A DNA stretch of 64,000 bases, from the NCBI GenBank assembly GCA_964406465.1, contig CAYORT010000002.1, positions 58,414 to 122,413 on the forward strand. Direction: 5' to 3'. A program made the position numbers and the translations under genes. Shown here piece after piece: positions 19 through 44,853 of the stretch (positions are counted from its first letter, which is position 1; every line of letters begins with the position of its first letter). This stretch comes from an uncultured Chryseobacterium sp. GTDB lineage: Bacteria > Bacteroidota > Bacteroidia > Flavobacteriales_C > GCA-002722245. The notes below the pieces were generated by a model. The model was not told the origin of the DNA and ran no database searches. It was given only the letters and a program-made list of their open reading frames with translations.

Positions 19-65
19 CACCCTCTCCATTCGGATGACTTGCTTACTGTGGCAATTGCATTGCC
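19..65 (+). repeat. REP-like element copy C: degenerate hairpin followed by GACTTGCTTACTGTGGCAATTGCATTGCC
   Basis: Aligns at about 80% with the copies at 1016-1063 and 1797-1844. It lies immediately 3' of the minus-strand gene 81..887. Confidence 0.6.
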
Positions 66-1015: not shown

Positions 1016-1063
1016 CACCCGCCTCTAGACGGGTGACTTATCTACTCCGGCAATTGCATTGCC
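1016..1063 (+). repeat. REP-like element copy A: hairpin CACCCGCCTCTAGACGGGTG plus GACTTATCTACTCCGGCAATTGCATTGCC
   Basis: Inverted repeat CACCCG/CGGGTG followed by a conserved tail with a CAATTG core. It lies in the gap between convergent-oriented minus-strand genes. Confidence 0.65.
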
Positions 1064-1094
1064 TTTTATCTATGTCTTCGTAGAGGCAAAAATT

Positions 1095-1796: not shown

Positions 1797-1844
1797 GACA
1801 ATACAATTGTCGGAGTACGCAAGTCACCCGTCTGGAGACGGGCG
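1797..1844 (-). repeat. REP-like element copy B (inverted orientation relative to copies A and C)
   Basis: Its reverse complement reads CGCCCGTCTCCAGACGGGTGACTTGCGTACTCCGACAATTGTATTGTC, about 80% identical to copy A. It sits directly after the stop of gene 1851..4196. Confidence 0.65.
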
Positions 1845-1850
1845 CCATAA

Positions 1851-4196
1851 TCACATCTTCAATACCACAAATTCCACCCTTCTATTCGCAGCCTTACCTT
1901 CATCAGTTGTATTAGGTGCCTTCGGTTTTGTCTCTCCGTAACCTTCAGATTGCAGGCGCTTTTCTGAAATACCTTTTGCAATTAAATAGTCCATGCAAGC
2001 CTTGGCTCTGTTTTTAGAAAGTTCTAAGTTTTTTGCATCGTCGCCCACGTTATCGGTATGACCGTGAATTGCGATATCTACCTTAGGGTTTTCAATTAAG
2101 AATTCATACAGTTGATCTAACACCAATTTAGATGCTCTGGTAAGCTCATAAGAGTCATTACCAAAAACGATGTCGTTCAAACGAATAGGTTTCTTCACTT
2201 CCAAAGCCTCAACCGTAATAGATGCTTTAGAGCCACGAATGGTTTTAGATCCATCAATCTCCTTGGCATTGAGTTCAACAACTTTACTTGAAAATGATTT
2301 CTTCTCTGTTTTAGCTGTAACAACATATTGTCCGTCGGGAGCATTCAACTCCTCTTCATCTTTCTTCACTATTTTCTCTTCACCATTCACCACCACCTTT
2401 TTGTGATCCACCGGTATCACCACCTCAATGCCTTTGATAGAATCTTTCTTCTCACCCGGCTTTAAAATTTGCTCTTTACCATTGATCTTTTCTACGTGTG
2501 AACCAAATTCTGCTTCCACTTCTTTTCCTCCAACTTGCAACACCACTTTTCTATCTTCGGTCTTATTTCTGTTAGGATCGGCCACCGTCATCACCGCCAC
2601 ATATTCACCTGTCTTCTTATCTACTGTAGCTTCGGTTATTTCACCTGTTTTCGCATTTTTAATTTCTACTTTTCCATTTTGTAATGGCGCTCCTTTCTCA
2701 TCTTTCAAAACACCTTTCATCATCACTACTTTCTCGGGACGAGCTTGCTCGTATAAAGGAAAATTAATGATTTGCAAAGCACCATTCGCTCCGTTAGTGA
2801 TACCACTAGATAAGAAACCATATTTACCATCTAAACTAACAATGAAGCCATGCTCATCTGCCGGAGTGTTGATGGGCATACCCAAATTCACTGGCGTCAT
2901 CCAGTTGCCATAATCATCCATTCTGGTGTAGAAAATATCGAAACCTCCTAAGCCCGGTAAAGCATTCGAGCTAAAATATAATGTCTTGCTATCGGTGTGT
3001 AAGAAGGGCGTTTTTTCGTGACCTTTGGTATTGATTACATTGCCTAAGTTTTTAGGTGCCGACCAAGAACCATCTTTATTTTTTGTGATCATAAAGAGGT
3101 CCATTGAGTATACAGGTTCATCCAACTCATTTAAAGAGAACATTGACGAATTTCGCGCACTAGAAAAAATAATCATTTTACCATCGGAAGAGATAGTAGG
3201 TTGTCCCTCCCACGTCATGTTACCACCTTCATCGTTCGCCACTCTTAGAGGACGAAATTGAGTCCATTTTCCATCCACTAAATCGGTGTAATAAATACTT
3301 GTGTTGGTCGCTTTGGTATTTCCTGTAGGCACCAATAATTTCACTGTCACATAAATTCTCTTGTTATCGGGAGTAACGCAAATACCGCCATTACCTAAAA
3401 TCTCTCCGCCATCTAAAGTACCGTTAAAATCGTTGAAAGGCATTGGCATTGGAGTACCCGTACTGAACGAGTCTACCCAAAGTTTTGTGGCTACAGTGAA
3501 GTACTCTTTCTTGTCGTTTCCGGGTCCGGCAGGCAACATCGGATTAGGAGTACCAGCCATTTGACGCACCAAATACAACTGCTCGTTATCGGGAGATAAT
3601 GCAGGTAAATATTCGTTATCCAAAGTATTTACACCCTTCACAGGTGATGGATTGTAAGGAACAGGATTCTTCAAAATCTTATCGATTGCAACACATTCTT
3701 TATACAGTCGGCGCGCAACCTCCTCATTATTGGCAGTGGTATTCCATTCATCATCTAAATAGGCTTTAAACAAAGGAGCTGCTTCAGAAAGTTTACCTTC
3801 CATATGATAGATGGTGGCTAAGTAGAAAGAACCTAGGTGACCACTAAAGGCCGGACAAAGTTCATTGAGTTTAATGAAATAGTCTTTCGACTTACCAATG
3901 AAAATTTCCTTTTTTGAGGCATCGCTATTCATTGCTACTCTCGACTTCCCCTTCTCGGGAAAGGCCAATTCAAAATAATGTCTACCTAAAGCATAGTAAG
4001 GCTCGGGCATTTGAGGATCAAGCTCAATCACCGCTTTCAAAAGATTTACTCCTTCTACTTTGTCTTTTGTGTAAGTAGCAATAGCAGCGTCGTACTTCTT
4101 TCTAACTTTCTTAGGTGCTTTGTATTCACAGTTTCCCTCTTGCGCCAATACGTTAACCGATAACAACAACAATATTACAACCCCGATTCTTCTCAT
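1851..4196 (-). CDS. PorE-like envelope protein: TPR, TolB-like PD40 beta-propeller, carboxypeptidase-regulatory-like domain and OmpA_C peptidoglycan-binding domain
   Basis: Signal peptide. TPR-like N-terminus. PD40 repeats such as DGKMIIFSSARN and DSKTLYFSSNALPGLGGFDIFYT. C-terminal OmpA_C motif IVFGNDSYEL...HGHTDNVGDDAKNLELSKNRAKA...GYGETKP. Confidence 0.75.
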   Translation of the reverse strand: MRRIGVVILLLLSVNVLAQEGNCEYKAPKKVRKKYDAAIATYTKDKVEGVNLLKAVIELDPQMPEPYYALGRHYFELAFPEKGKSRVAMNSDASKKEIFIGKSKDYFIKLNELCPAFSGHLGSFYLATIYHMEGKLSEAAPLFKAYLDDEWNTTANNEEVARRLYKECVAIDKILKNPVPYNPSPVKGVNTLDNEYLPALSPDNEQLYLVRQMAGTPNPMLPAGPGNDKKEYFTVATKLWVDSFSTGTPMPMPFNDFNGTLDGGEILGNGGICVTPDNKRIYVTVKLLVPTGNTKATNTSIYYTDLVDGKWTQFRPLRVANDEGGNMTWEGQPTISSDGKMIIFSSARNSSMFSLNELDEPVYSMDLFMITKNKDGSWSAPKNLGNVINTKGHEKTPFLHTDSKTLYFSSNALPGLGGFDIFYTRMDDYGNWMTPVNLGMPINTPADEHGFIVSLDGKYGFLSSGITNGANGALQIINFPLYEQARPEKVVMMKGVLKDEKGAPLQNGKVEIKNAKTGEITEATVDKKTGEYVAVMTVADPNRNKTEDRKVVLQVGGKEVEAEFGSHVEKINGKEQILKPGEKKDSIKGIEVVIPVDHKKVVVNGEEKIVKKDEEELNAPDGQYVVTAKTEKKSFSSKVVELNAKEIDGSKTIRGSKASITVEALEVKKPIRLNDIVFGNDSYELTRASKLVLDQLYEFLIENPKVDIAIHGHTDNVGDDAKNLELSKNRAKACMDYLIAKGISEKRLQSEGYGETKPKAPNTTDEGKAANRRVEFVVLKM

Positions 4197-34952: not shown

Positions 34953-34987
34953 AAAAAACCTTCGCAGCAATGCGAAGGTTTTTTTTA
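34953..34987 (+). terminator. Rho-independent terminator CCTTCGCA-GCAA-TGCGAAGG followed by T8
   Basis: Perfect 8-bp stem with an A-run before and a T-run after. It separates the two tandem PorE-like genes. Confidence 0.8.
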
Positions 34988-36824: not shown

Positions 36825-37643
36825 ATGAAATTAAACTTAACTCGTCCGCTGGCTTTCTTCGACTTAGAAACGACAGGAACTGATATATCAAAAGATAGAA
36901 TCGTAGAGATTTCCATTGTGAAAGTGATGCCCAATGGTGATAAAGACAGTAAAACACGTCGCATCAATCCAGGCATGCCTATTCCAAAAGAAGCTTCTGC
37001 TGTTCATCATATTTACGATGAAGACGTTAAAGACTGTCCTCTGTTTAAAGCTATTGCCAAAAGTTTACACGACTTCTTAATCGGCTGCGATATAGCAGGA
37101 TTCAACAGCGATAGATTTGATATTCCTCTTTTGGCTGAAGAATTCTTAAGAGCAGAAATTGATTTTGATTTAAGCGACCGAAAAACCATTGATGTGCAAA
37201 ACCTATTTCACAAAATGGAGCAACGTACATTGAGTGCTGGATATAAATTCTATTGTGGTAAATCGTTAGATAATGCCCACAGTGCCCTTGCCGATACAGA
37301 AGCTACTTTAGAGATTTTAGAAGCAATGCTAGATCGTTACGAGCACACCGAAATAGAAGACGAAAACAAAAAACTTTACAAACCCATCGTTAACGATGTT
37401 GCTAAACTACAAGCCTTCTCTAAACGAGATAAAAATGTAGATTTAGCCGGTAGAATTGTATTCAATGAAAACAACATTGAAGTATTCAACTTTGGAAAAC
37501 ACAAGGGCAAACCGGTTGAATTGGTACTCACTCAAGAACCATCATATTACGCTTGGATGATGGATGGCGATTTCCCTCTTTACACCAAAAAAGCATTAGA
37601 GAAAATTAAGATTAGATTATTGCAGAATAAGTTGAATTCGTAG
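36825..37643 (+). CDS. DnaQ-like 3'-5' exonuclease domain protein
   Basis: Exo I motif FFDLETTG. Conserved H..ALADT (Exo III). Confidence 0.8.
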   Translation: MKLNLTRPLAFFDLETTGTDISKDRIVEISIVKVMPNGDKDSKTRRINPGMPIPKEASAVHHIYDEDVKDCPLFKAIAKSLHDFLIGCDIAGFNSDRFDIPLLAEEFLRAEIDFDLSDRKTIDVQNLFHKMEQRTLSAGYKFYCGKSLDNAHSALADTEATLEILEAMLDRYEHTEIEDENKKLYKPIVNDVAKLQAFSKRDKNVDLAGRIVFNENNIEVFNFGKHKGKPVELVLTQEPSYYAWMMDGDFPLYTKKALEKIKIRLLQNKLNS

Positions 37644-37668
37644 AGTTAAAAACCTTTTTATATACCTA

Positions 37669-37781
37669 GCACATCCCGGTAGAGACGAATTGCATTCGTC
37701 TTAAATAAAAAATCTTCCGTTGTTAAGGAAAAGGAATTAATCTTTTTAAGACGAATGCAATTCGTCTCTACCGGGATGTGT
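37669..37781. repeat. Perfect 35-bp inverted repeat (GCACATCCCGGTAGAGACGAATTGCATTCGTCTTAA ... reverse complement) separated by a 42-nt AT-rich spacer; each arm also contains its own 8-bp palindrome
   Basis: The arms at 37669-37704 and 37747-37781 are exact reverse complements. The element lies between convergent genes ending at 37643 (+) and 37788 (-). Confidence 0.85.
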
Positions 37782-37787
37782 AATCAA

Positions 37788-38633
37788 TCAAAACAAACTC
37801 CCCTGCACCACAACCTTCTCTGCTTCCACTTCCAACACCTCAACACTAATCACATAGCCACTGTGTTTGCGAAGATTAATCACATTGCCATTGCTAAACA
37901 TTAAATACTGTCCACGTATTCCCTGTAATTTACCTTCCACCACTGCTTCTTTATCGAAGCCTACACTTTTTATTTTTTCGAGATATGCCTCTACCGGATA
38001 TTGAATATCGATAATCTTATCGTCGTCATCGGCATATTCCATGAGATCTTCGGGAAGTTTATCTATTAAAGAATTTTTAAGTTTTACTAAATCCACATCT
38101 TCTCCCCTTTCATCCTTCAGCATTTTCTGCCAGTTGGTCTTATCTGAAATATATTGCTTGAGTTCTATTTCTATTAGTCCGGCCAGTTGACGATAAGGCA
38201 CCAAAGCCAATTTTATTCCTTTGCGTGCACCCTGATCAATCCAACGATTGTGCAAATTAGAAGCACGTGTTACACCCACTTTCACATCGCTGGTTTGTGC
38301 GATATATACATAATGTGGAACGTTATGATTTTTCTCTTCCCATTCTACATCTCTACCTTGATGTTCGTGTGCCATACATAGCTCTGGACGAACAATGCAC
38401 TCTGAATTATCGGGAGATTTCAAAAAACAAGGATAACAAAAACCTTGTCCGAATGATTTATTCGTTTTCTTATCACACGCTACACAACGAATTTCATTTT
38501 GAAAAGTGAGTCGAATATTTTTACCAATAAAATCGTTGATACAAATCTTTGAATGGTCATGCTGAAGATAGTATCTAACCGGATTTTGCAACTCCACCGG
38601 CATCTTCTCCAGCTTTCCTTGCCACACCATCAT
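37788..38633 (-). CDS. Conserved hypothetical protein with a CxxC...CxxC zinc-ribbon (DUF2797-like)
   Basis: CVAC and CYPC motifs and conserved His/Cys in ...LCMAHEH. No enzymatic motif is recognisable. Its stop overlaps the upstream DUF493 gene, suggesting an operon. Confidence 0.4.
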   Translation of the reverse strand: MMVWQGKLEKMPVELQNPVRYYLQHDHSKICINDFIGKNIRLTFQNEIRCVACDKKTNKSFGQGFCYPCFLKSPDNSECIVRPELCMAHEHQGRDVEWEEKNHNVPHYVYIAQTSDVKVGVTRASNLHNRWIDQGARKGIKLALVPYRQLAGLIEIELKQYISDKTNWQKMLKDERGEDVDLVKLKNSLIDKLPEDLMEYADDDDKIIDIQYPVEAYLEKIKSVGFDKEAVVEGKLQGIRGQYLMFSNGNVINLRKHSGYVISVEVLEVEAEKVVVQGSLF

Positions 38634-38893
38634 AACGCCACCAATCCGTCAATGTGAGACACTCGTTTGTATCCATGCAACACATCTTCAGCAGAGAATA
38701 CAATCACCAGCACAGTTACACTAACGTAATTCCCTTTAGTAGAATGTTTCTCAGTGATTTCAGCAGTTTCGAAATGCGGCTTTATTTGGTCAACTTTATC
38801 TTTAGGAACGATAAACTTAAACATATACTTAGAAGGGAAACTCATTTGAGTTTCCAACTGTTTTCTAAGGTATTCGTAGCGATCATCACTCAT
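38630..38893 (-). CDS. DUF493 / YbeD-family (UPF0250) small protein
   Basis: An 87-aa protein. FPSKYMFKFIV and STKGNYVSVTV align with E. coli YbeD (FP..YTYKVMG; SSKGNYHSVSI). Confidence 0.75.
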   Translation of the reverse strand: MSDDRYEYLRKQLETQMSFPSKYMFKFIVPKDKVDQIKPHFETAEITEKHSTKGNYVSVTVLVIVFSAEDVLHGYKRVSHIDGLVAL

Positions 38894-40782
38894 TAATAAA
38901 GAACTCTAAACTTAATAGTGTGCTTTATACTTTTCAATTCCTCGATAATTTCCTTTTTGTAGTTTTTATCTACATCGGTAATTAAGTAACCAATCTTTTC
39001 ATCAGTAGCAAGATACTGGCCAATGATGTTCAATCCTTTTTTAGATAAAACGCCATTTACTTTAGCCATGATACCTGGTACATTTTCATGCACATGCAAG
39101 AATCGGTGAGAACTTCCTTGCTCTTGCAAACGAACGTTAGGGAAATTAACACTCTTGTATGTTATTCCTTTATTTACATAATCAATAATTCGAGCTGGAA
39201 CAAACTCAGCAATATTTTCTTGAGCTTCTAAAGTAGAACCTCCCACATGTGGAGTAAGAATTACGTTTGGCAAACCTATTAATTCAGAAACAAACGGTTC
39301 GTCGTTATTTTTAGGCTCTTTAGGAAATACATCCACACCAGCACCAGAAATCTTTCCACTCTTTAAATGTTTTACCAAAGCAGGAATATCAACAACAAAA
39401 CCTCTGCTTAAGTTCACAAAAGCGGCTCCATCTTTCATCGCTTTAAACTCTTTGTCTCCAAAGAAATTTTTGTTTTCGGCGCTGTCGTCGATATGTAAAG
39501 AAACTACATCAGCTTTTTTCAATAACTCATTAAGCGTATTGCATTTTTGAGCATTACCCAAAGCCAACTTCTCCACAGAATCATAAAACACCACTTTCAT
39601 CCCAAGGGCTTCGGCCACAACAGAAAGTTGAGAACCAATATTTCCGTAACCTACAATCCCTAATGTTTTATTTCTAACTTCATAGCTACCCACAGCAGTC
39701 TTGTTCCATTTACCATTGTGCAATTCGGTACTTCTTTCGAATACGCGACGCATTAACATGATAATTTCTCCTATAGCCAATTCTACAACCGAACGAGTGT
39801 TACTGAATGGAGCATTAAATACCACCACTCCTTTTTCTTTACAAGCATCAAGATTGATTTGTTTTGTACCGATACAGAATGCACCCACCGACATCAATTT
39901 GTTGGCATGTTCTAAAACCTTAGCAGTAACATTTGTTTTCGAACGAATACCCAAAATATGAACATCCTTAATTTTTTTGCAAAGTTCTGCTTCGTCTAAA
40001 GCACCTTTCATTGTCTCAACGGTGTAACCCTCTTCCGTGAAAATATTTAATGCGTTTGCATGAATATTTTCAAGCAATAAAACTTTAATTCTGTTTTTTG
40101 GATAAGAAATAGCCATAGGCAATTTATTTAAGTATAAAAATTCTTCAAAACTAGGAGTAATATGGTCGGCAACATCTAAGATGTTCTTCCTTTTCACGTT
40201 TTCTGTGTATGCAAAAAATTTGTTCGCAACACCATCTCTACGGGTAACATAATCACTAAATCCATCACCTATCATGTACACTGTACCTTTCAAGTTCATT
40301 TTTTTCATGCACTCAATCTTCCCGTTGTGTTTCGACAAAGGATTCTTGGTATCGAAGCCCACAATTTTACCATCTTTAAATTTGAAAGTATTGGCATAAA
40401 CTCTCTCGGGCGGTATGTGATATTCTTTAACGATGGGCTCAATAAACTCTTTAAAGCCAGCCGACATTACATAAATGTTTTTAGCATGTTCTTTAAAGAA
40501 TGATTTATTACGAGCTATCGATTTAGAAATTTCTTTTTTGAGACGTTTCACCAAAAGAGGCAAATGCTCCTCTCTCGCTTCCAAAACATCTAATCTTTGC
40601 TTCAAGCCTTCGGTAAAAGAAATTGTACCGTCAATCCCCATATCGGTGATGCGTTTTATTTTCTCAATGATTTCGGCTTGTTTAGGATTTCCTTTCAAAG
40701 AAATTTCGGCAAGCACATCCAATGCTTCCACTTGAGTTAGCGTGCTATCGAAATCGAAAACATATTTACAATTCTCGGGCAT
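38893..40782 (-). CDS. serA: Bifunctional phosphoserine phosphatase (HAD SerB-like N-terminus) fused to D-3-phosphoglycerate dehydrogenase with a C-terminal ACT domain
   Basis: HAD motif I FDFDSTLT and motif IV GDGFSDY. Rossmann motif GIVGYGNIGS. Dehydrogenase catalytic region. C-terminal ACT domain. Start moved to ATG 40782. Confidence 0.75.
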   Translation of the reverse strand: MPENCKYVFDFDSTLTQVEALDVLAEISLKGNPKQAEIIEKIKRITDMGIDGTISFTEGLKQRLDVLEAREEHLPLLVKRLKKEISKSIARNKSFFKEHAKNIYVMSAGFKEFIEPIVKEYHIPPERVYANTFKFKDGKIVGFDTKNPLSKHNGKIECMKKMNLKGTVYMIGDGFSDYVTRRDGVANKFFAYTENVKRKNILDVADHITPSFEEFLYLNKLPMAISYPKNRIKVLLLENIHANALNIFTEEGYTVETMKGALDEAELCKKIKDVHILGIRSKTNVTAKVLEHANKLMSVGAFCIGTKQINLDACKEKGVVVFNAPFSNTRSVVELAIGEIIMLMRRVFERSTELHNGKWNKTAVGSYEVRNKTLGIVGYGNIGSQLSVVAEALGMKVVFYDSVEKLALGNAQKCNTLNELLKKADVVSLHIDDSAENKNFFGDKEFKAMKDGAAFVNLSRGFVVDIPALVKHLKSGKISGAGVDVFPKEPKNNDEPFVSELIGLPNVILTPHVGGSTLEAQENIAEFVPARIIDYVNKGITYKSVNFPNVRLQEQGSSHRFLHVHENVPGIMAKVNGVLSKKGLNIIGQYLATDEKIGYLITDVDKNYKKEIIEELKSIKHTIKFRVLY

Positions 40783-40957
40783 AAAATAAATGAGGGGCGA
40801 AAATAGCGAATTAAGTCTAAGGATTAAAGTATAAAGTATAAAGTTTTTGAACACCTTTTTAAAAGGCTAAAATTTGTGTAAAACGGGCTTTTTTATATTT
40901 TCACCGCACTAATTCAAAAACAAAATTCTTATGCGTTGAATTTTCACTTTCCTATTA

Positions 40958-42766
40958 TTGGCTTTATTGCCATTTTCAGCATTTAACCAATGTATAAGCG
41001 GTAATTGCAGCAATGGTACTGGAGCTTACCAGTTTAGCTCTAGCCGTTATATTGGCGAATTCAAAAACAACAGAGCCCACGGAAAAGGCACTCAAACCTT
41101 TGATGGTGGAGACAAATATGAAGGTGAGTACTTAAATGGGTACTACCATGGTAAAGGGACTTATTACTACCAAAACGGGAATAAATACGTTGGAAATTAC
41201 GCAAACGGTAAAATGAATGGCCAAGGCACATATACTACCAAGGAAGGTGACAAGTATGTTGGCTCCTTCGTTATGGGACAATTTCAAGGCTATGGAGAAT
41301 ATCGATTTGCCAACGGAACCATCTACAAAGGAATGTGGGTGAAAAGTGCTATGCATGGCAAGGGTGTGATTTACTATAACAATGGAAATCAATATGATGG
41401 CACCTTCGCAAAAGGAAAAAAGAAAGGAAAAGGTGTTTTCAAATTCAAAAGTGGAGACATATTTGTTGGCAAATTTGCTAACGACCAAAGACACGGCGCA
41501 GGAGTTCACACTTTTTTCGACGGGGAAAAATATGAAGGCAAATGGAAATTTGATGAAGGAGGCAAAGTATTCGACGAACTATGGGAAATTAAGCACAATG
41601 GCAAATGCAAAGCCGACAACGAAAAGGACGGTCGCCGTCCAAGCCAATTCAATTACAACCTCGATAGTCTAACTAAGGTGATCAATGATAAAATAAATTC
41701 TAATTACAAATTCTCAGAACCTTTATTGAGTAATGCCTTTAGAACTGGTGATTTCGAAACTGCCGATAAGGAGTACACTACATTGTATGAAAATCATCCC
41801 AAGGAATTAAGCATCTTGCTTTATAGAGGACTAATTAGAGAGTTAATGGGAAGACACCGAAGAGCAGCTGCAGATTTCCAAACCATACTTAATAAAACGG
41901 GAAATATTAACGAAATTCTGTATTTGCAAGGAGAAGCATATTTTCATGGTTCTAAAGATACAGCTGGTGCTGCCGCAATGGAAAAAATAATTCTTACCGA
42001 CAGCAGCAAATACAATGTTTATGTTTATCTCGGAGATTTTTACACTACTAAAAAAAGAAATCAAAAACTTGCCGAAAAATACTATAAAAAAGCATTGCAA
42101 CTGATGCCATATGAACTACAAGCAAAGGAAAATTTGTTGGAATGCTATCTTCAATTTGGTGATACCACCAAGGTAAACAATATAACATCTGAACTTGTTA
42201 GAGACTGTGCCGGCGACATTTTCACCACCTTACGAATTGCTAACATTCATAAGAACACTAAAAATTACAGCTCAGCTCTAAAGTATTACAATAGCATCTT
42301 AAACACACCAAACTTAAGCAAAATCATACCAGCAGATAAAATCGAAAAGGCATATGCTTCAAGAGCTTGGGTTCAGTATAAAATGAAAATGTTTAATGAG
42401 GCAAAATTAGATTACGAGACTGCTTTGAAAACCGACACATTAAACGAATCAAACTGGAATACACTTGCCTACATCTACGTACTAGAAAAAAATGCAACCA
42501 AGGCTTTAGAAATAGTTGAAAAATCAATCATTGCCAACCCCAAATATGATTGGTCATACACCACCAAAGCTGAGGCTTACATGCTACTGGGCGATGACTT
42601 CTATGTATACAAGAATTTAGAGATTGCAATGAAAAATGGACTAGATGACTTTTCTTATTTTGAAGAGGATGAAGATCAACTTTATGGAAAATACAAAAAG
42701 GAAAAAAAGTTTATTGAACTAGTTAACAAATACAAAGCATTATTAGAAGAAGAAAGAGAAAAATAA
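40958..42766 (+). CDS. MORN-repeat protein with C-terminal TPR repeats; the N-terminal signal peptide is interrupted by an in-frame TGA
   Basis: At least 8 MORN repeats (YEGEYLNGYYHGKGTYYY...). TPR repeats follow in the second half. The in-frame upstream sequence ATG CGT TGA ATT TTC ACT TTC CTA TTA TTG reads MR*IFTFLLLALLPFSAFNQ, so the true start is uncertain (TTG 40958 or ATT 40940). Confidence 0.6.
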   Translation: MALLPFSAFNQCISGNCSNGTGAYQFSSSRYIGEFKNNRAHGKGTQTFDGGDKYEGEYLNGYYHGKGTYYYQNGNKYVGNYANGKMNGQGTYTTKEGDKYVGSFVMGQFQGYGEYRFANGTIYKGMWVKSAMHGKGVIYYNNGNQYDGTFAKGKKKGKGVFKFKSGDIFVGKFANDQRHGAGVHTFFDGEKYEGKWKFDEGGKVFDELWEIKHNGKCKADNEKDGRRPSQFNYNLDSLTKVINDKINSNYKFSEPLLSNAFRTGDFETADKEYTTLYENHPKELSILLYRGLIRELMGRHRRAAADFQTILNKTGNINEILYLQGEAYFHGSKDTAGAAAMEKIILTDSSKYNVYVYLGDFYTTKKRNQKLAEKYYKKALQLMPYELQAKENLLECYLQFGDTTKVNNITSELVRDCAGDIFTTLRIANIHKNTKNYSSALKYYNSILNTPNLSKIIPADKIEKAYASRAWVQYKMKMFNEAKLDYETALKTDTLNESNWNTLAYIYVLEKNATKALEIVEKSIIANPKYDWSYTTKAEAYMLLGDDFYVYKNLEIAMKNGLDDFSYFEEDEDQLYGKYKKEKKFIELVNKYKALLEEEREK

Positions 42767-42771
42767 TGATT

Positions 42772-44853
42772 CTATTGAAGTATTGGATGGTAAAGAATAT
42801 CATCAATATACAAACTTCTCTTTAGCGATTTATTGTTCCAGAAATAAAGTGCCAGCGTATCGTTGGCACTTTGTTTTTGTGGCAATTCCAAATCAAACGA
42901 TACCTTTTGCCATTTTCCATTAGGCACTACTTTTCCCTTCAAATTTGTGCCTTCCCACCACTTGCCTTTCGATGCAACAAAAGTCATATCGACGCTATCA
43001 TTCGCCAAAGCCATAAAACTAACCTCTATTCTCTTTAAGGGCGCAGTAGAAAATTGAAATGCTTCGCTAAAATCATACTTGTCGTTTATCACACGGCAAA
43101 AATCACCGGTATTCTTGGGTTCACTCACTATGTTAGACGGGCGATAATGTGCATTATTGTATTCAAAAGAGCTTGTGAAAAAGCCATTTTTATTTTGCCA
43201 AATATTCTCTTTAGGATGCTCATTCATAATCAATTCAAATGGCGAAAAATCATGTAATTGAGCATACAAAGGCATTGCACTCATCGCCTGCGCTGGCCTT
43301 TTGAAATTTGTGCAATAAAAGAAATACAATTTCAACTCATTCTCTTCTTCGTAGCGTTCAATATAAGTAGAGTCGACCAATTTCACTGTATCAAAAAATG
43401 GAGATATTTGATCATTACCTCCAGTGATGAAATTATCATGTGAAACAACAACACAATTTTTTCCTAGCATCGATTTAGGATCGAGTAAAAATGCATAATT
43501 GCGCGGTTCATTGGTAATTAACATGAAATCTTTCTCACCCTTAAAAGCATAATCAATTAGTCCCGACAACCACCAAATTGACGCACCAACAAACACATTC
43601 TTATCTTGCATCCAACCTCTCTCTTTAAACTTCTCCTTTACAGCATCAAAACTATAGCAATAAATGGTTGGATCATTCTTTTCTTTGAACGAAAGCGAAA
43701 GCCACTTCGGACCGTAACTCGTCCAAAAACCAGTATTGATATGAACTACCAAAACAGCAAACAACCCAACAGTAACAAAGGTTGTAAGCATCACCGTTCT
43801 ATAAATCAGCTTGCCAAATCGTCCTATTTTCGCATCCAACCAAGCACCAAGCGGAATAAAAAGCATCAAATAACCAGGAGTTTGCCAGTGAAAATGATAC
43901 ACCAAATCGCTCCATAAAGTAACTACCGTAAAGAAAATTATAGTTGGAAAAGTTAAGCATGCTATTAAAACATAAACAGGGTATTTCTTTTTATTCTTAA
44001 AGATCATGAACATCTGTATCACTAATGGAATCCATACCCATGGCAACAGCCACAATATCTGGCCGGCAATACTTCTAAAAAACCAATCCCATCTCAAACT
44101 AGATTCTGTTGCGCCTGCTCTCGCCGATTGAAAAACAAAAGAAATCCATTCGTTCTGTGAATTCCAATATAAAACGGGAATAAAAATGACAAAAGTTATC
44201 AATAATGCTAAATAAGGTCCGTAGTGATAAAACCAATGTCTTTGCCCTTTCTGAAACACACAACACAATAATACTCCAAAAGCTAAAAAGGCAATATTGT
44301 ATTTGCTTAAAGCTCCAAAACCAAAAGAAATCCCAAAAACCATCCACCATTTCAAAACATATTTCGATTTTCTAAAACCATTTAAATCACTTACATCAAA
44401 ATTTGGATAAAACAATTTGTAAATAGCGTAAAATGCCAATAACCAAAAGAATATAAAGACTGCATCGGGCTGAGCAAAAATGGCAAATGAAAGGGTGAAG
44501 ACAGCACTAATATTAAACATTAACACCGAAAGGAATGCGGCTCTTTTGCTTTTGAAAACTTCAAGAGAAACTTTATACAGCAACAAAGTGGTGAGTGCGA
44601 AGAACAAAATAGAGGATATCCTTAATGCGAAGCTGTTGTATCCAAAAATTTTAACGAAAACACCTGAAATCCAGAAGAAAAGAGGCGGCTGATCAAAATA
44701 GCTCCATTGCAAATCCCAAACGCCTCTTGCATAATAAGCTTCACCATTCATTAAGGGATTGAAAGAAAATAAAATTCTAATAGCTGTTGATATTAGCAAA
44801 AGATAAAACAGCCTTTTATCTTCTTTTAATATGCTGATTAGCGATTTAAGCAT
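42772..44853 (-). CDS. Family-39 glycosyltransferase (ArnT/PMT-like polyprenyl-phosphate sugar transferase) with an extra roughly 250-aa C-terminal soluble domain
   Basis: N-terminal multi-TM region carrying the PMT_2-like motif ...GEAYYARGVWDLQWSYFDQPPL. About 11 predicted TM helices. Confidence 0.7.
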   Translation of the reverse strand: MLKSLISILKEDKRLFYLLLISTAIRILFSFNPLMNGEAYYARGVWDLQWSYFDQPPLFFWISGVFVKIFGYNSFALRISSILFFALTTLLLYKVSLEVFKSKRAAFLSVLMFNISAVFTLSFAIFAQPDAVFIFFWLLAFYAIYKLFYPNFDVSDLNGFRKSKYVLKWWMVFGISFGFGALSKYNIAFLAFGVLLCCVFQKGQRHWFYHYGPYLALLITFVIFIPVLYWNSQNEWISFVFQSARAGATESSLRWDWFFRSIAGQILWLLPWVWIPLVIQMFMIFKNKKKYPVYVLIACLTFPTIIFFTVVTLWSDLVYHFHWQTPGYLMLFIPLGAWLDAKIGRFGKLIYRTVMLTTFVTVGLFAVLVVHINTGFWTSYGPKWLSLSFKEKNDPTIYCYSFDAVKEKFKERGWMQDKNVFVGASIWWLSGLIDYAFKGEKDFMLITNEPRNYAFLLDPKSMLGKNCVVVSHDNFITGGNDQISPFFDTVKLVDSTYIERYEEENELKLYFFYCTNFKRPAQAMSAMPLYAQLHDFSPFELIMNEHPKENIWQNKNGFFTSSFEYNNAHYRPSNIVSEPKNTGDFCRVINDKYDFSEAFQFSTAPLKRIEVSFMALANDSVDMTFVASKGKWWEGTNLKGKVVPNGKWQKVSFDLELPQKQSANDTLALYFWNNKSLKRSLYIDDILYHPILQ

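Follow-up and report, generated by a model that had tools for sequence, protein, structure and literature searches.

A 64,000-nt stretch of DNA (the window) from an uncultured Chryseobacterium sp. (GCA_964406465.1, contig CAYORT010000002.1, positions 58,414-122,413) carries a perfect inverted repeat between two convergent genes, at positions 37670-37780. This element is quite probably a tail-to-tail inverted pair of identical repetitive extragenic palindromic (REP) sequences, arranged like the REP doublets forming hairpins that are known as REPINs. Its units are assigned, as part of the same reading, to the GTAGAGACG...CGTCT(CTAC) type that goes with subclass 2.4 (Bertels group 4) of the tyrosine transposases associated with REPs (RAYTs, also called TnpAREP). 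The doublet is an additional case of a known REP type and not a novel class of element. The window has a G+C content of ~37%, and its nearest protein relatives come from metagenome-assembled genomes (MAGs) of uncultured Flavobacteriales/Bacteroidota.

The two arms (37670-37705 and 37745-37780) are 36 nt long and 100% complementary (36/36), and they enclose a spacer of 39 nt. The left arm reads CACATCCCGGTAGAGACGAATTGCATTCGTCTTAAA and is built as CACATCCCG-GTAG-AGACGAAT-TGC-ATTCGTCT-TAAA. One position further out, G37669 stands opposite T37781 and could pair with it solely as G-U, in RNA. An earlier sequence-only reading of this DNA had reported the perfect inverted repeat, which is real, but with arms at 37669-37704 and 37747-37781, a length of 35 bp and a spacer of 42 nt, values that are off by 1-3 nt. 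It had also seen that each arm contains an 8-bp palindrome around a TGC loop, and we find the same. The parts of the element are as follows.

37670..37780, no strand: whole element, read as an inverted doublet of two REP units (REPIN-like) with the GTAG feet outward, 111 nt
37670..37678, plus strand: outer extension of the left arm, CACATCCCG; its ATCCCG recurs elsewhere as the 5' flank of this REP type
37679..37701, plus strand: REP unit 1, GTAG (37679-37682) and then the hairpin AGACGAAT-TGC-ATTCGTCT (37683-37701)
37702..37705, plus strand: inner end of the left arm, TAAA; a doublet in another genome (L024, below) likewise has TAA/TTA beside its hairpins
37706..37744, no strand: A+T-rich spacer, 39 nt, with a DNA fold of its own (-1.5 kcal/mol, z = 0.09) that is not significant
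37745..37748, minus strand: inner end of the right arm, TTTA on the plus strand
37749..37771, minus strand: REP unit 2, read on the minus strand as GTAG (37771-37768) and then the same hairpin
37772..37780, minus strand: outer extension of the right arm, CGGGATGTG on the plus strand

Each unit has an 8-bp stem (AGACGAAT/ATTCGTCT) closed by the loop TGC, with a DNA fold of -6.6 kcal/mol (z = -3.35). These dimensions lie within the limits used for REPs by Quentin et al. 2018 (PMC6006769), namely a fully paired stem of 7-20 nt and a loop of 2-5 nt. GTAG stands directly at the stem foot on both strands (37679-37682 on the plus strand, 37771-37768 on the minus strand), inside the 0-2 nt allowed for a GT[AG]G tag. 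The two REP cores are 47 nt apart, with GTAG on the left and CTAC on the right. Folded as a whole, the element reaches -70.5 kcal/mol as plus-strand RNA (z = -13.8), -70.0 kcal/mol as minus-strand RNA (z = -12.4) and -45.1 kcal/mol as DNA (z = -13.1). Two inverted REPs with a short spacer that fold into one hairpin are what defines the form of a REPIN, and this form is present here. Among the 28 inverted repeats in the 64 kb, the doublet is the longest and the sole perfect long one. The arm has no second match in the window even at 3 mismatches, and 0 of 100 shuffles matched.

To follow the unit beyond this locus, we searched the GTDB representatives, with one genome for each species, for the 19-nt hairpin, without GTAG in the pattern. 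The hairpin was found in 26 loci (L001-L026), nearly all of them in Bacteroidota MAGs: eight contigs of one Flavobacteriales MAG, three contigs in each of two others, and further matches in Marinilabiliales, Saprospiraceae, Muribaculaceae and Balneolaceae. Most of these matches are single units, and many lie at contig ends. GTAG stands 5' of the hairpin in 22 of the 28 occurrences, compared with about 1 in 256 by chance, and the 23-mer of GTAG plus hairpin occurs at 22 places in these loci. Adjacent hairpins in the same loci keep GTAGAGACG...CGTCT, with an apex that is different yet palindromic.

This pattern of variation holds across the family. Between the constant GTAGAGACG and CGTCT, all fetched loci together gave 55 distinct apexes, and 38 of these lengthen the stem by three or more pairs, compared with ~2.7 expected from shuffled apexes. 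The hairpin is maintained by compensatory change across family members. A second scan, of metagenome contigs, used the arm foot with a free apex (ATCCCGGTAGAGACG N7-13 CGTCT) and returned 54 loci with a G+C content of 34-66%. Most of these have a palindromic apex, and several REPs are full palindromes (CCCGGTAG...CTACCGGG). Eight loci, representing six distinct sites, have a non-palindromic apex and form the chance background of the pattern. A tRNA 3' end as the source of ATCCCGGTAGAGACG (TCGAATCC... in L031 and L055) was considered and rejected, as ARAGORN found no tRNA in these eight loci. Because the window unit combines a GTAG tag with a hairpin kept by compensatory change, and is extragenic and, in other genomes, dispersed, it conforms to the definition of a GTAG REP. 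Among several possible identities, the sequence-only reading had offered a REP-type mobile remnant, and this one is borne out: the arms are GTAG-tagged REP hairpins, dispersed in Bacteroidota and other phyla and found near RAYT/TnpAREP genes.

Two local contexts of the unit were seen along the way. In several Flavobacteriales MAGs (L004, L007, L009-L012, L021-L023), short tandem repeats (AAAGTTGAAAGT..., GTGGAAAGCGACAAAG..., AATTGAAAATGG..., GGATAAG x7) surround the REPs, and the same MAGs have intergenic clusters of several different GTAG hairpins, such as the eight units in 3 kb between membrane-protein genes in L011. A low-G+C metagenome lineage (L036, L037, L039, L046, L054, L056, L063, L076, L084) holds many copies of a ~120-nt unit, in which GTAGAGACGTAGCATGCTACGTCTCTAC lies between a conserved ...GCGTTGTATCC[C/G]G on one side and AAAATAC... 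on the other. In this lineage the ATCCCG/ATCCGG flank belongs to the ~120-nt repeated unit.

The link to a transposase subclass comes from published REPs. Quentin et al. list the REPs that lie within 1 kb of TnpAREP/RAYT genes (PMC6006769, Table S1), and those of subclass 2.4 have in common with the window unit a 5' GTAG at the stem foot, the base GTAGAGACG...CGTCT(CTAC) and Bacteroidota as a host phylum. Examples from Cytophaga hutchinsonii are GTAGAGACGCAATTTATTGCGTCT and another REP, GTAGGGGCGAATTGCATTCGCCC, whose apex is the same as that of the window unit (CGAATTGCATTCG); others are GTAGAGACGCAATGCATTGCGTCTCTAC (Chlorobium), GTAGAGACGCACGGCCGTGCGTCTCTAC (Chloroflexus) and GTAGAGACAAGGCATGCCTTGTCTCTAC (strain coded AesuA01). 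By sequence comparison, the window unit matches the type found within 1 kb of subclass 2.4 genes.

RAYT-like genes are also present beside this REP type in the metagenome loci selected by the foot, where we found them in 8 of the 54 (L032, L037, L038, L056, L073, L079, L083, L084). The RAYT-like proteins carry NH[LFVI]H, WQ and YIxNNP-type motifs and have a mutual identity of 36-44%. With Pfam Y1_Tnp (cut-off 23 bits), the best scored 33.4 bits, two fell just under the cut-off and one had no match. A REP lies 9 nt past the RAYT-like gene in L032, and in L079 a REP lies within the gene, in frame (IPVETLHATSL); in-frame inserts are also present in L032 and L038. Such in-frame REP inserts in RAYT genes are a hallmark peculiarity of TnpAREP subclass 2.4 (PMC6006769). 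In the RAYT-like genes of L032 (11090-11758), L079 (623-1207, minus strand) and L038 (1449-2075), GTAGAGACGTTGCATGCAACGTCTCTA translates to VETLHATSL, as in subclass 2.4.

Quentin et al. call the GTAG...CTAC forms 'double foot' REPs and propose that they could derive from an inverted REP dimer via a central deletion (PMC6006769). Judged by its sequence, the GTAG-outward dimer of the window would be the 'inverted REP dimer' of that discussion. It differs from a double-foot REP in having two facing units 47 nt apart, not one 28-nt palindrome, and in that the window holds no RAYT. A double-foot REP (GTAGAGACGTTGCATGCAACGTCTCTAC) is also the core of a tandem array beside the RAYT-like gene of L073 (795-1040; period 56 nt, at least four repeats), in which each repeat adds a nearly constant 28-nt spacer. 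This array is not CRISPR-like, because its spacers are identical.

The doublet layout itself recurs. GTAG-outward (tail-to-tail) pairs with spacers of 18-37 nt were found in five other loci (L024, L042, L044, L072, L077). The L024 doublet has 27-nt arms that are 89% complementary, and its source MAG (GCA_026390935.1) also holds an orthologue of the exonuclease gene to the left of the window doublet, 81% identical and with the same upstream gene order. Therefore, the clade of the window carries a REP doublet at another locus. The window doublet is the sole pair seen with identical partners.

In form, the element has much in common with REPINs, which are extragenic, consist of two inverted REPs with a short spacer that make one long hairpin, and show no target duplication. 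REPINs differ in being defined by replication of the doublet in tens to hundreds of copies, together with a flanking RAYT gene. The window doublet, compared with them, is single copy in the 64 kb, has no exact match in the metagenome collection, and has perfect rather than slightly diverged arms. Described REPINs belong to RAYT groups 2 and 3 and come from Pseudomonas, Enterobacteria and Neisseria. The REPs and bacterial interspersed mosaic elements (BIMEs) of E. coli are likewise extragenic hairpins at the 3' ends of genes, for which mRNA stabilisation, termination and service as protein-binding sites have been proposed as roles. However, they are unrelated in sequence, go with RAYT subclass 2.2 and number hundreds of copies in E. 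coli. The GTAG-tagged REP superfamily (e.g. Stenotrophomonas SMAG; Di Nocera et al. 2013, PMC3733652) shares the GTAG tag and the palindrome. Its units are often oppositely paired into larger folds and favour positions downstream of genes, with flanking open reading frames that converge or run in one direction (PMC3733652). In contrast, Bacteroidetes are listed in that survey with CGTC repeats, not GTAG, and its supplementary files lack GTAGAGACG, a string for which a search of the literature gave primer sequences only.

The genes on either side face each other across the element, as the sequence-only reading had described.

36825..37643, plus strand: left gene, 3'-5' exonuclease (RNase_T with an ExoX-like C-terminus; PF00929 7.3e-19, PF20600 1.5e-07)
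37788..38633, minus strand: right gene, DUF2797 (PF10977 2.5e-86)

The stop codons lie 26 nt before the left arm and 7 nt after the right arm. The element takes up 111 of the 144 intergenic bases and is wholly between the two stop codons, i.e. extragenic. We compared the locus with seven relatives for DUF2797 and three for the exonuclease, and nucleotide similarity to all of them stops at both stop codons (37642-37650 and 37788-37790). The closest exonuclease relative (L085, 95% amino acid identity) has 47 nt of unrelated sequence past its stop codon before the contig ends. These 47 nt were considered as a possible DUF2797 3' end and rejected, since all DUF2797 homologues end in ...VQGSLF (or VIQGVLF). 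In the second (L086, 87%), another inverted repeat follows the stop codon and then a PMT gene, and in the third (L088, 81%) there is a short A-rich spacer. On the other side, three different genes lie 3-19 nt past the stop codon in the DUF2797 relatives at 91-93% identity, and more distant relatives have different neighbours again. The exonuclease and DUF2797 genes are adjacent in none of the ten, so that this adjacency is unique to the window's genome.

The doublet is not ancestral at this site: the relatives with readable sequence are all without the element at the corresponding gene ends. The sequence-only reading had named a single copy conserved in all relatives, with only transcript ends seen at the stem, as the finding that would reduce the element to a simple terminator. 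The relatives give a different picture, with unrelated sequence past both stop codons.

The inverted repeat in L086 (4873-5000; GCA_023251075.1, JAHEZM010000016.1) has 55-nt arms that are 91% complementary, an 18-nt spacer and the sequence GTCATTCTGAGGCACGAAGGAAC. It is distinct from the window doublet, and the end of the exonuclease gene therefore hosts unrelated palindromic elements in different genomes. It should also be noted that, in a comparison with L086 and L027, the window has ~5.1 kb extra between the exonuclease and PMT genes (37645-42798) relative to GCA_023251075.1. Besides the doublet, which marks one of its edges, this block contains DUF2797 and DUF493, a gene that fuses HAD, 2-hydroxyacid dehydrogenase and ACT, and an open reading frame of 602 aa.

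From established REP/RAYT and IS200/IS605 biology, the doublet would have arrived by the HUH/Y1 mechanism proposed for REPs and REPINs. A RAYT acting in trans would recognise GTAG and the hairpin in single-stranded DNA, and would cleave and rejoin the single-stranded REP without target duplication. The flanks of the element (...TATATACCTAG and TAATCAATCAAA...) have no common direct repeat and thus no target-site duplication, which fits Y1/HUH elements and argues against a DDE-type MITE, a miniature transposable element with inverted repeats. Alternatively, one REP may have been duplicated locally, in inverted form, to give the pair. The arms are perfectly symmetrical, which suggests either that the event was recent or that the arms are continually kept identical.

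Several results weigh against the assignment to a REPIN-like doublet of subclass 2.4. Apart from the two units, the window is without GTAG-tagged hairpins of this kind, which leaves a high copy number unproven. A search of the window for RAYT genes, by tblastn with four RAYT-like proteins (E <= 1) and by motif scans, gave no match, so the presence of a cognate RAYT in the genome is likewise unproven. RAYTs are usually single-copy; none was found in L001-L030 either. A pattern for the exact doublet (same stems, free loop, spacer of 30-60 nt) had 0 matches in the metagenome collection, and replication as a unit is therefore not demonstrated. Perfect 36/36 arms that reach 9 nt past GTAG are unusual, as the other doublets have unequal apexes. 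ATCCCG was part of the metagenome search pattern, so enrichment of this flank is not quantifiable. Lastly, none of the relatives examined offers a clean empty site; the neighbouring gene differs in each, and insertion is inseparable from rearrangement. The element sits at a variable junction, and for this reason no clean empty site could be found.

In the strongest competing explanation, local inverted duplication of a single REP with a few flanking bases (by template switching, by snap-back synthesis at a stalled fork or in the rearrangement that joined the two genes) would have produced a doublet that never moved as a unit. This is possible, although we consider it on the unlikely side. It would account for the identity of the arms along their full 36 nt, also at bases that lie beyond the REP itself, for the lack of another exact doublet copy in the metagenome collection, and for the position of the element exactly at a synteny break, while doublets elsewhere have unequal partners. 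However, ATCCCG plus GTAG recurs in many unrelated contexts, and most of the 'extra' arm may therefore be part of the REP unit. Five other loci have GTAG-outward doublets of similar spacing. The lack of copies is also weak evidence for this explanation, because the source genome is outside the collections searched.

A function in the double-stranded RNA itself, as a small-RNA gene or a dedicated RNase III site, is very improbable. A perfect RNA duplex of 36-37 bp would indeed be a substrate for RNase III. However, no Rfam family matched at its gathering threshold, and the sub-threshold matches are to eukaryotic miRNA-precursor models (17-49 bits, against thresholds of 45-144) that fit any long hairpin. 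Furthermore, no promoter-like site faces the element, and it is not conserved in relatives.

We regard it as highly improbable that the element is a bidirectional intrinsic terminator that evolved in place, unrelated to mobile repeats. What would suit such a role is its position 26 and 7 nt from the stop codons of two convergent genes, its extreme hairpin stability on both strands and the lack of any other terminator-like site in this intergenic region. On the other hand, the arm core is a GTAG-tagged repeat dispersed over many genomes, and relatives lack the element. The stem is not followed by a T-run (TAATCAATC on the plus strand, CTAGGTATATAAAAAGG on the minus strand), so a classical intrinsic terminator is not supported, and a terminator scan gave no terminator-like site at 37644-37787. 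Ordinary terminators in the window are short stems with A and T runs, such as the one at 34953-34984. A co-opted terminator role may nevertheless exist and is compatible with the REP doublet.

Two further explanations are as improbable. The sequence-only reading had also proposed a MITE, here a deletion derivative of a DDE-transposase insertion sequence (IS) with 36-bp terminal inverted repeats; the length of 111 nt, the long terminal inverted repeats, the A+T-rich centre and the intergenic position all fit, but we set this aside as having very little chance of being right, given arms without a flanking direct repeat (...ACCTAG on the left, TAATCA... on the right) that are REP hairpins, elsewhere mostly single units, and not transposase-type terminal repeats, no exact doublet elsewhere in the metagenome collection, no plasmid, phage or viral match and no second copy in the window, and neighbouring genes of this REP type that are Y1/HUH and not DDE transposases. 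An assembly artefact, in which a REP/REPIN shared by the ends of two real loci served to join them and gave the exonuclease/DUF2797 adjacency, would explain why this adjacency is unique among the relatives examined and would agree with the frequent position of REP copies at MAG contig ends, but it is just as far-fetched: loci joined via a common repeat would retain a single copy of it and not two inverted around a unique asymmetric spacer, a fold-back would give mirror-image flanks, which are not present, and the doublet itself would be real even so.

The plasmid, phage and viral collections gave no match to the element, and the spacer (37706..37744) has no similarity elsewhere in these or in the metagenome collection.

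Returning to the reading as a REP doublet, both convergent transcripts would enter the element, and the hairpin would most likely be a very stable 3' structure (-70 kcal/mol as RNA) that protects the upstream mRNAs or blocks read-through. By analogy with the roles described for enterobacterial REPs, a protective or read-through-blocking function at the 3' ends is probably what the doublet provides.

A bolder version sees in the doublet a REPIN that is young and can still move, that depends on a subclass 2.4 (group 4) RAYT of an uncultured Flavobacteriales-like bacterium, and that has been captured where a rearrangement took place only lately. We consider this doubtful. If true, the inverted REP dimer from which double-foot REPs derive in the proposal of Quentin et al. 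would have a natural example here, and the ATCCCG that is found beside GTAG in several phyla would show where a little-studied RAYT subclass has its cleavage or target site.

For annotation, the 36-bp palindrome should be recorded as a repeat (REP/REPIN-like) and not as a gene, a small RNA or a novel element; beyond annotation this assignment has little import. Subclass 2.4 REPs are far less studied than those of Pseudomonas and E. coli, and the window adds their dimer form, with outward GTAG feet, in Bacteroidota. The position of the element at a junction with a different gene order in every available relative fits palindromes that mark or promote rearrangement-prone gene ends.

A separate set of repeats lies near the start of the window, at 19-1846. 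The sequence-only reading had suggested that these are kin to the doublet through a shared core, AATTGCATT, present in three upstream repeats. The core is exact in two of them (positions 54 and 1052), while the third has AATTGTATT inside GACAATTGTATTGTC. The proposed kinship does not hold up: the apex is the variable part of the REP, and enrichment of the 9-mer is marginal (7 occurrences in the window compared with 2.99 +/- 1.69 expected; 1 of 100 shuffles reached 7). Even this enrichment is weak, because four of the seven occurrences are in two repeated elements. The 15-mer GGCAATTGCATTGCC was absent from all 84 REP-bearing or relatives' loci examined. We conclude that the shared AATTGCATT is a coincidence, or at most reflects that both repeats prefer an AT-closed TGC loop, a loop that several published subclass 2.4 REPs have as well (PMC6006769).

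The upstream repeats form a family of their own, separate from the doublet. A composite repeat of ~50 nt is present in three copies, at 19-62 (plus strand), 1016-1064 (plus strand) and 1797-1846 (minus strand), with the consensus GGC(A/G)CCCGTCTCCAGACGGGTGACTT..TACTCCGGCAATTGCATTGCC. It consists of two hairpins, CCCGTCT-CC-AGACGGG and GGCAAT-TGC-ATTGCC, and in the third copy the second hairpin is replaced by the compensatory variant GACAATTGTATTGTC (GACAAT-TGT-ATTGTC). Each copy stands just past the stop codon of one of three consecutive minus-strand genes (81-887, 1095-1763 and 1851-4196).

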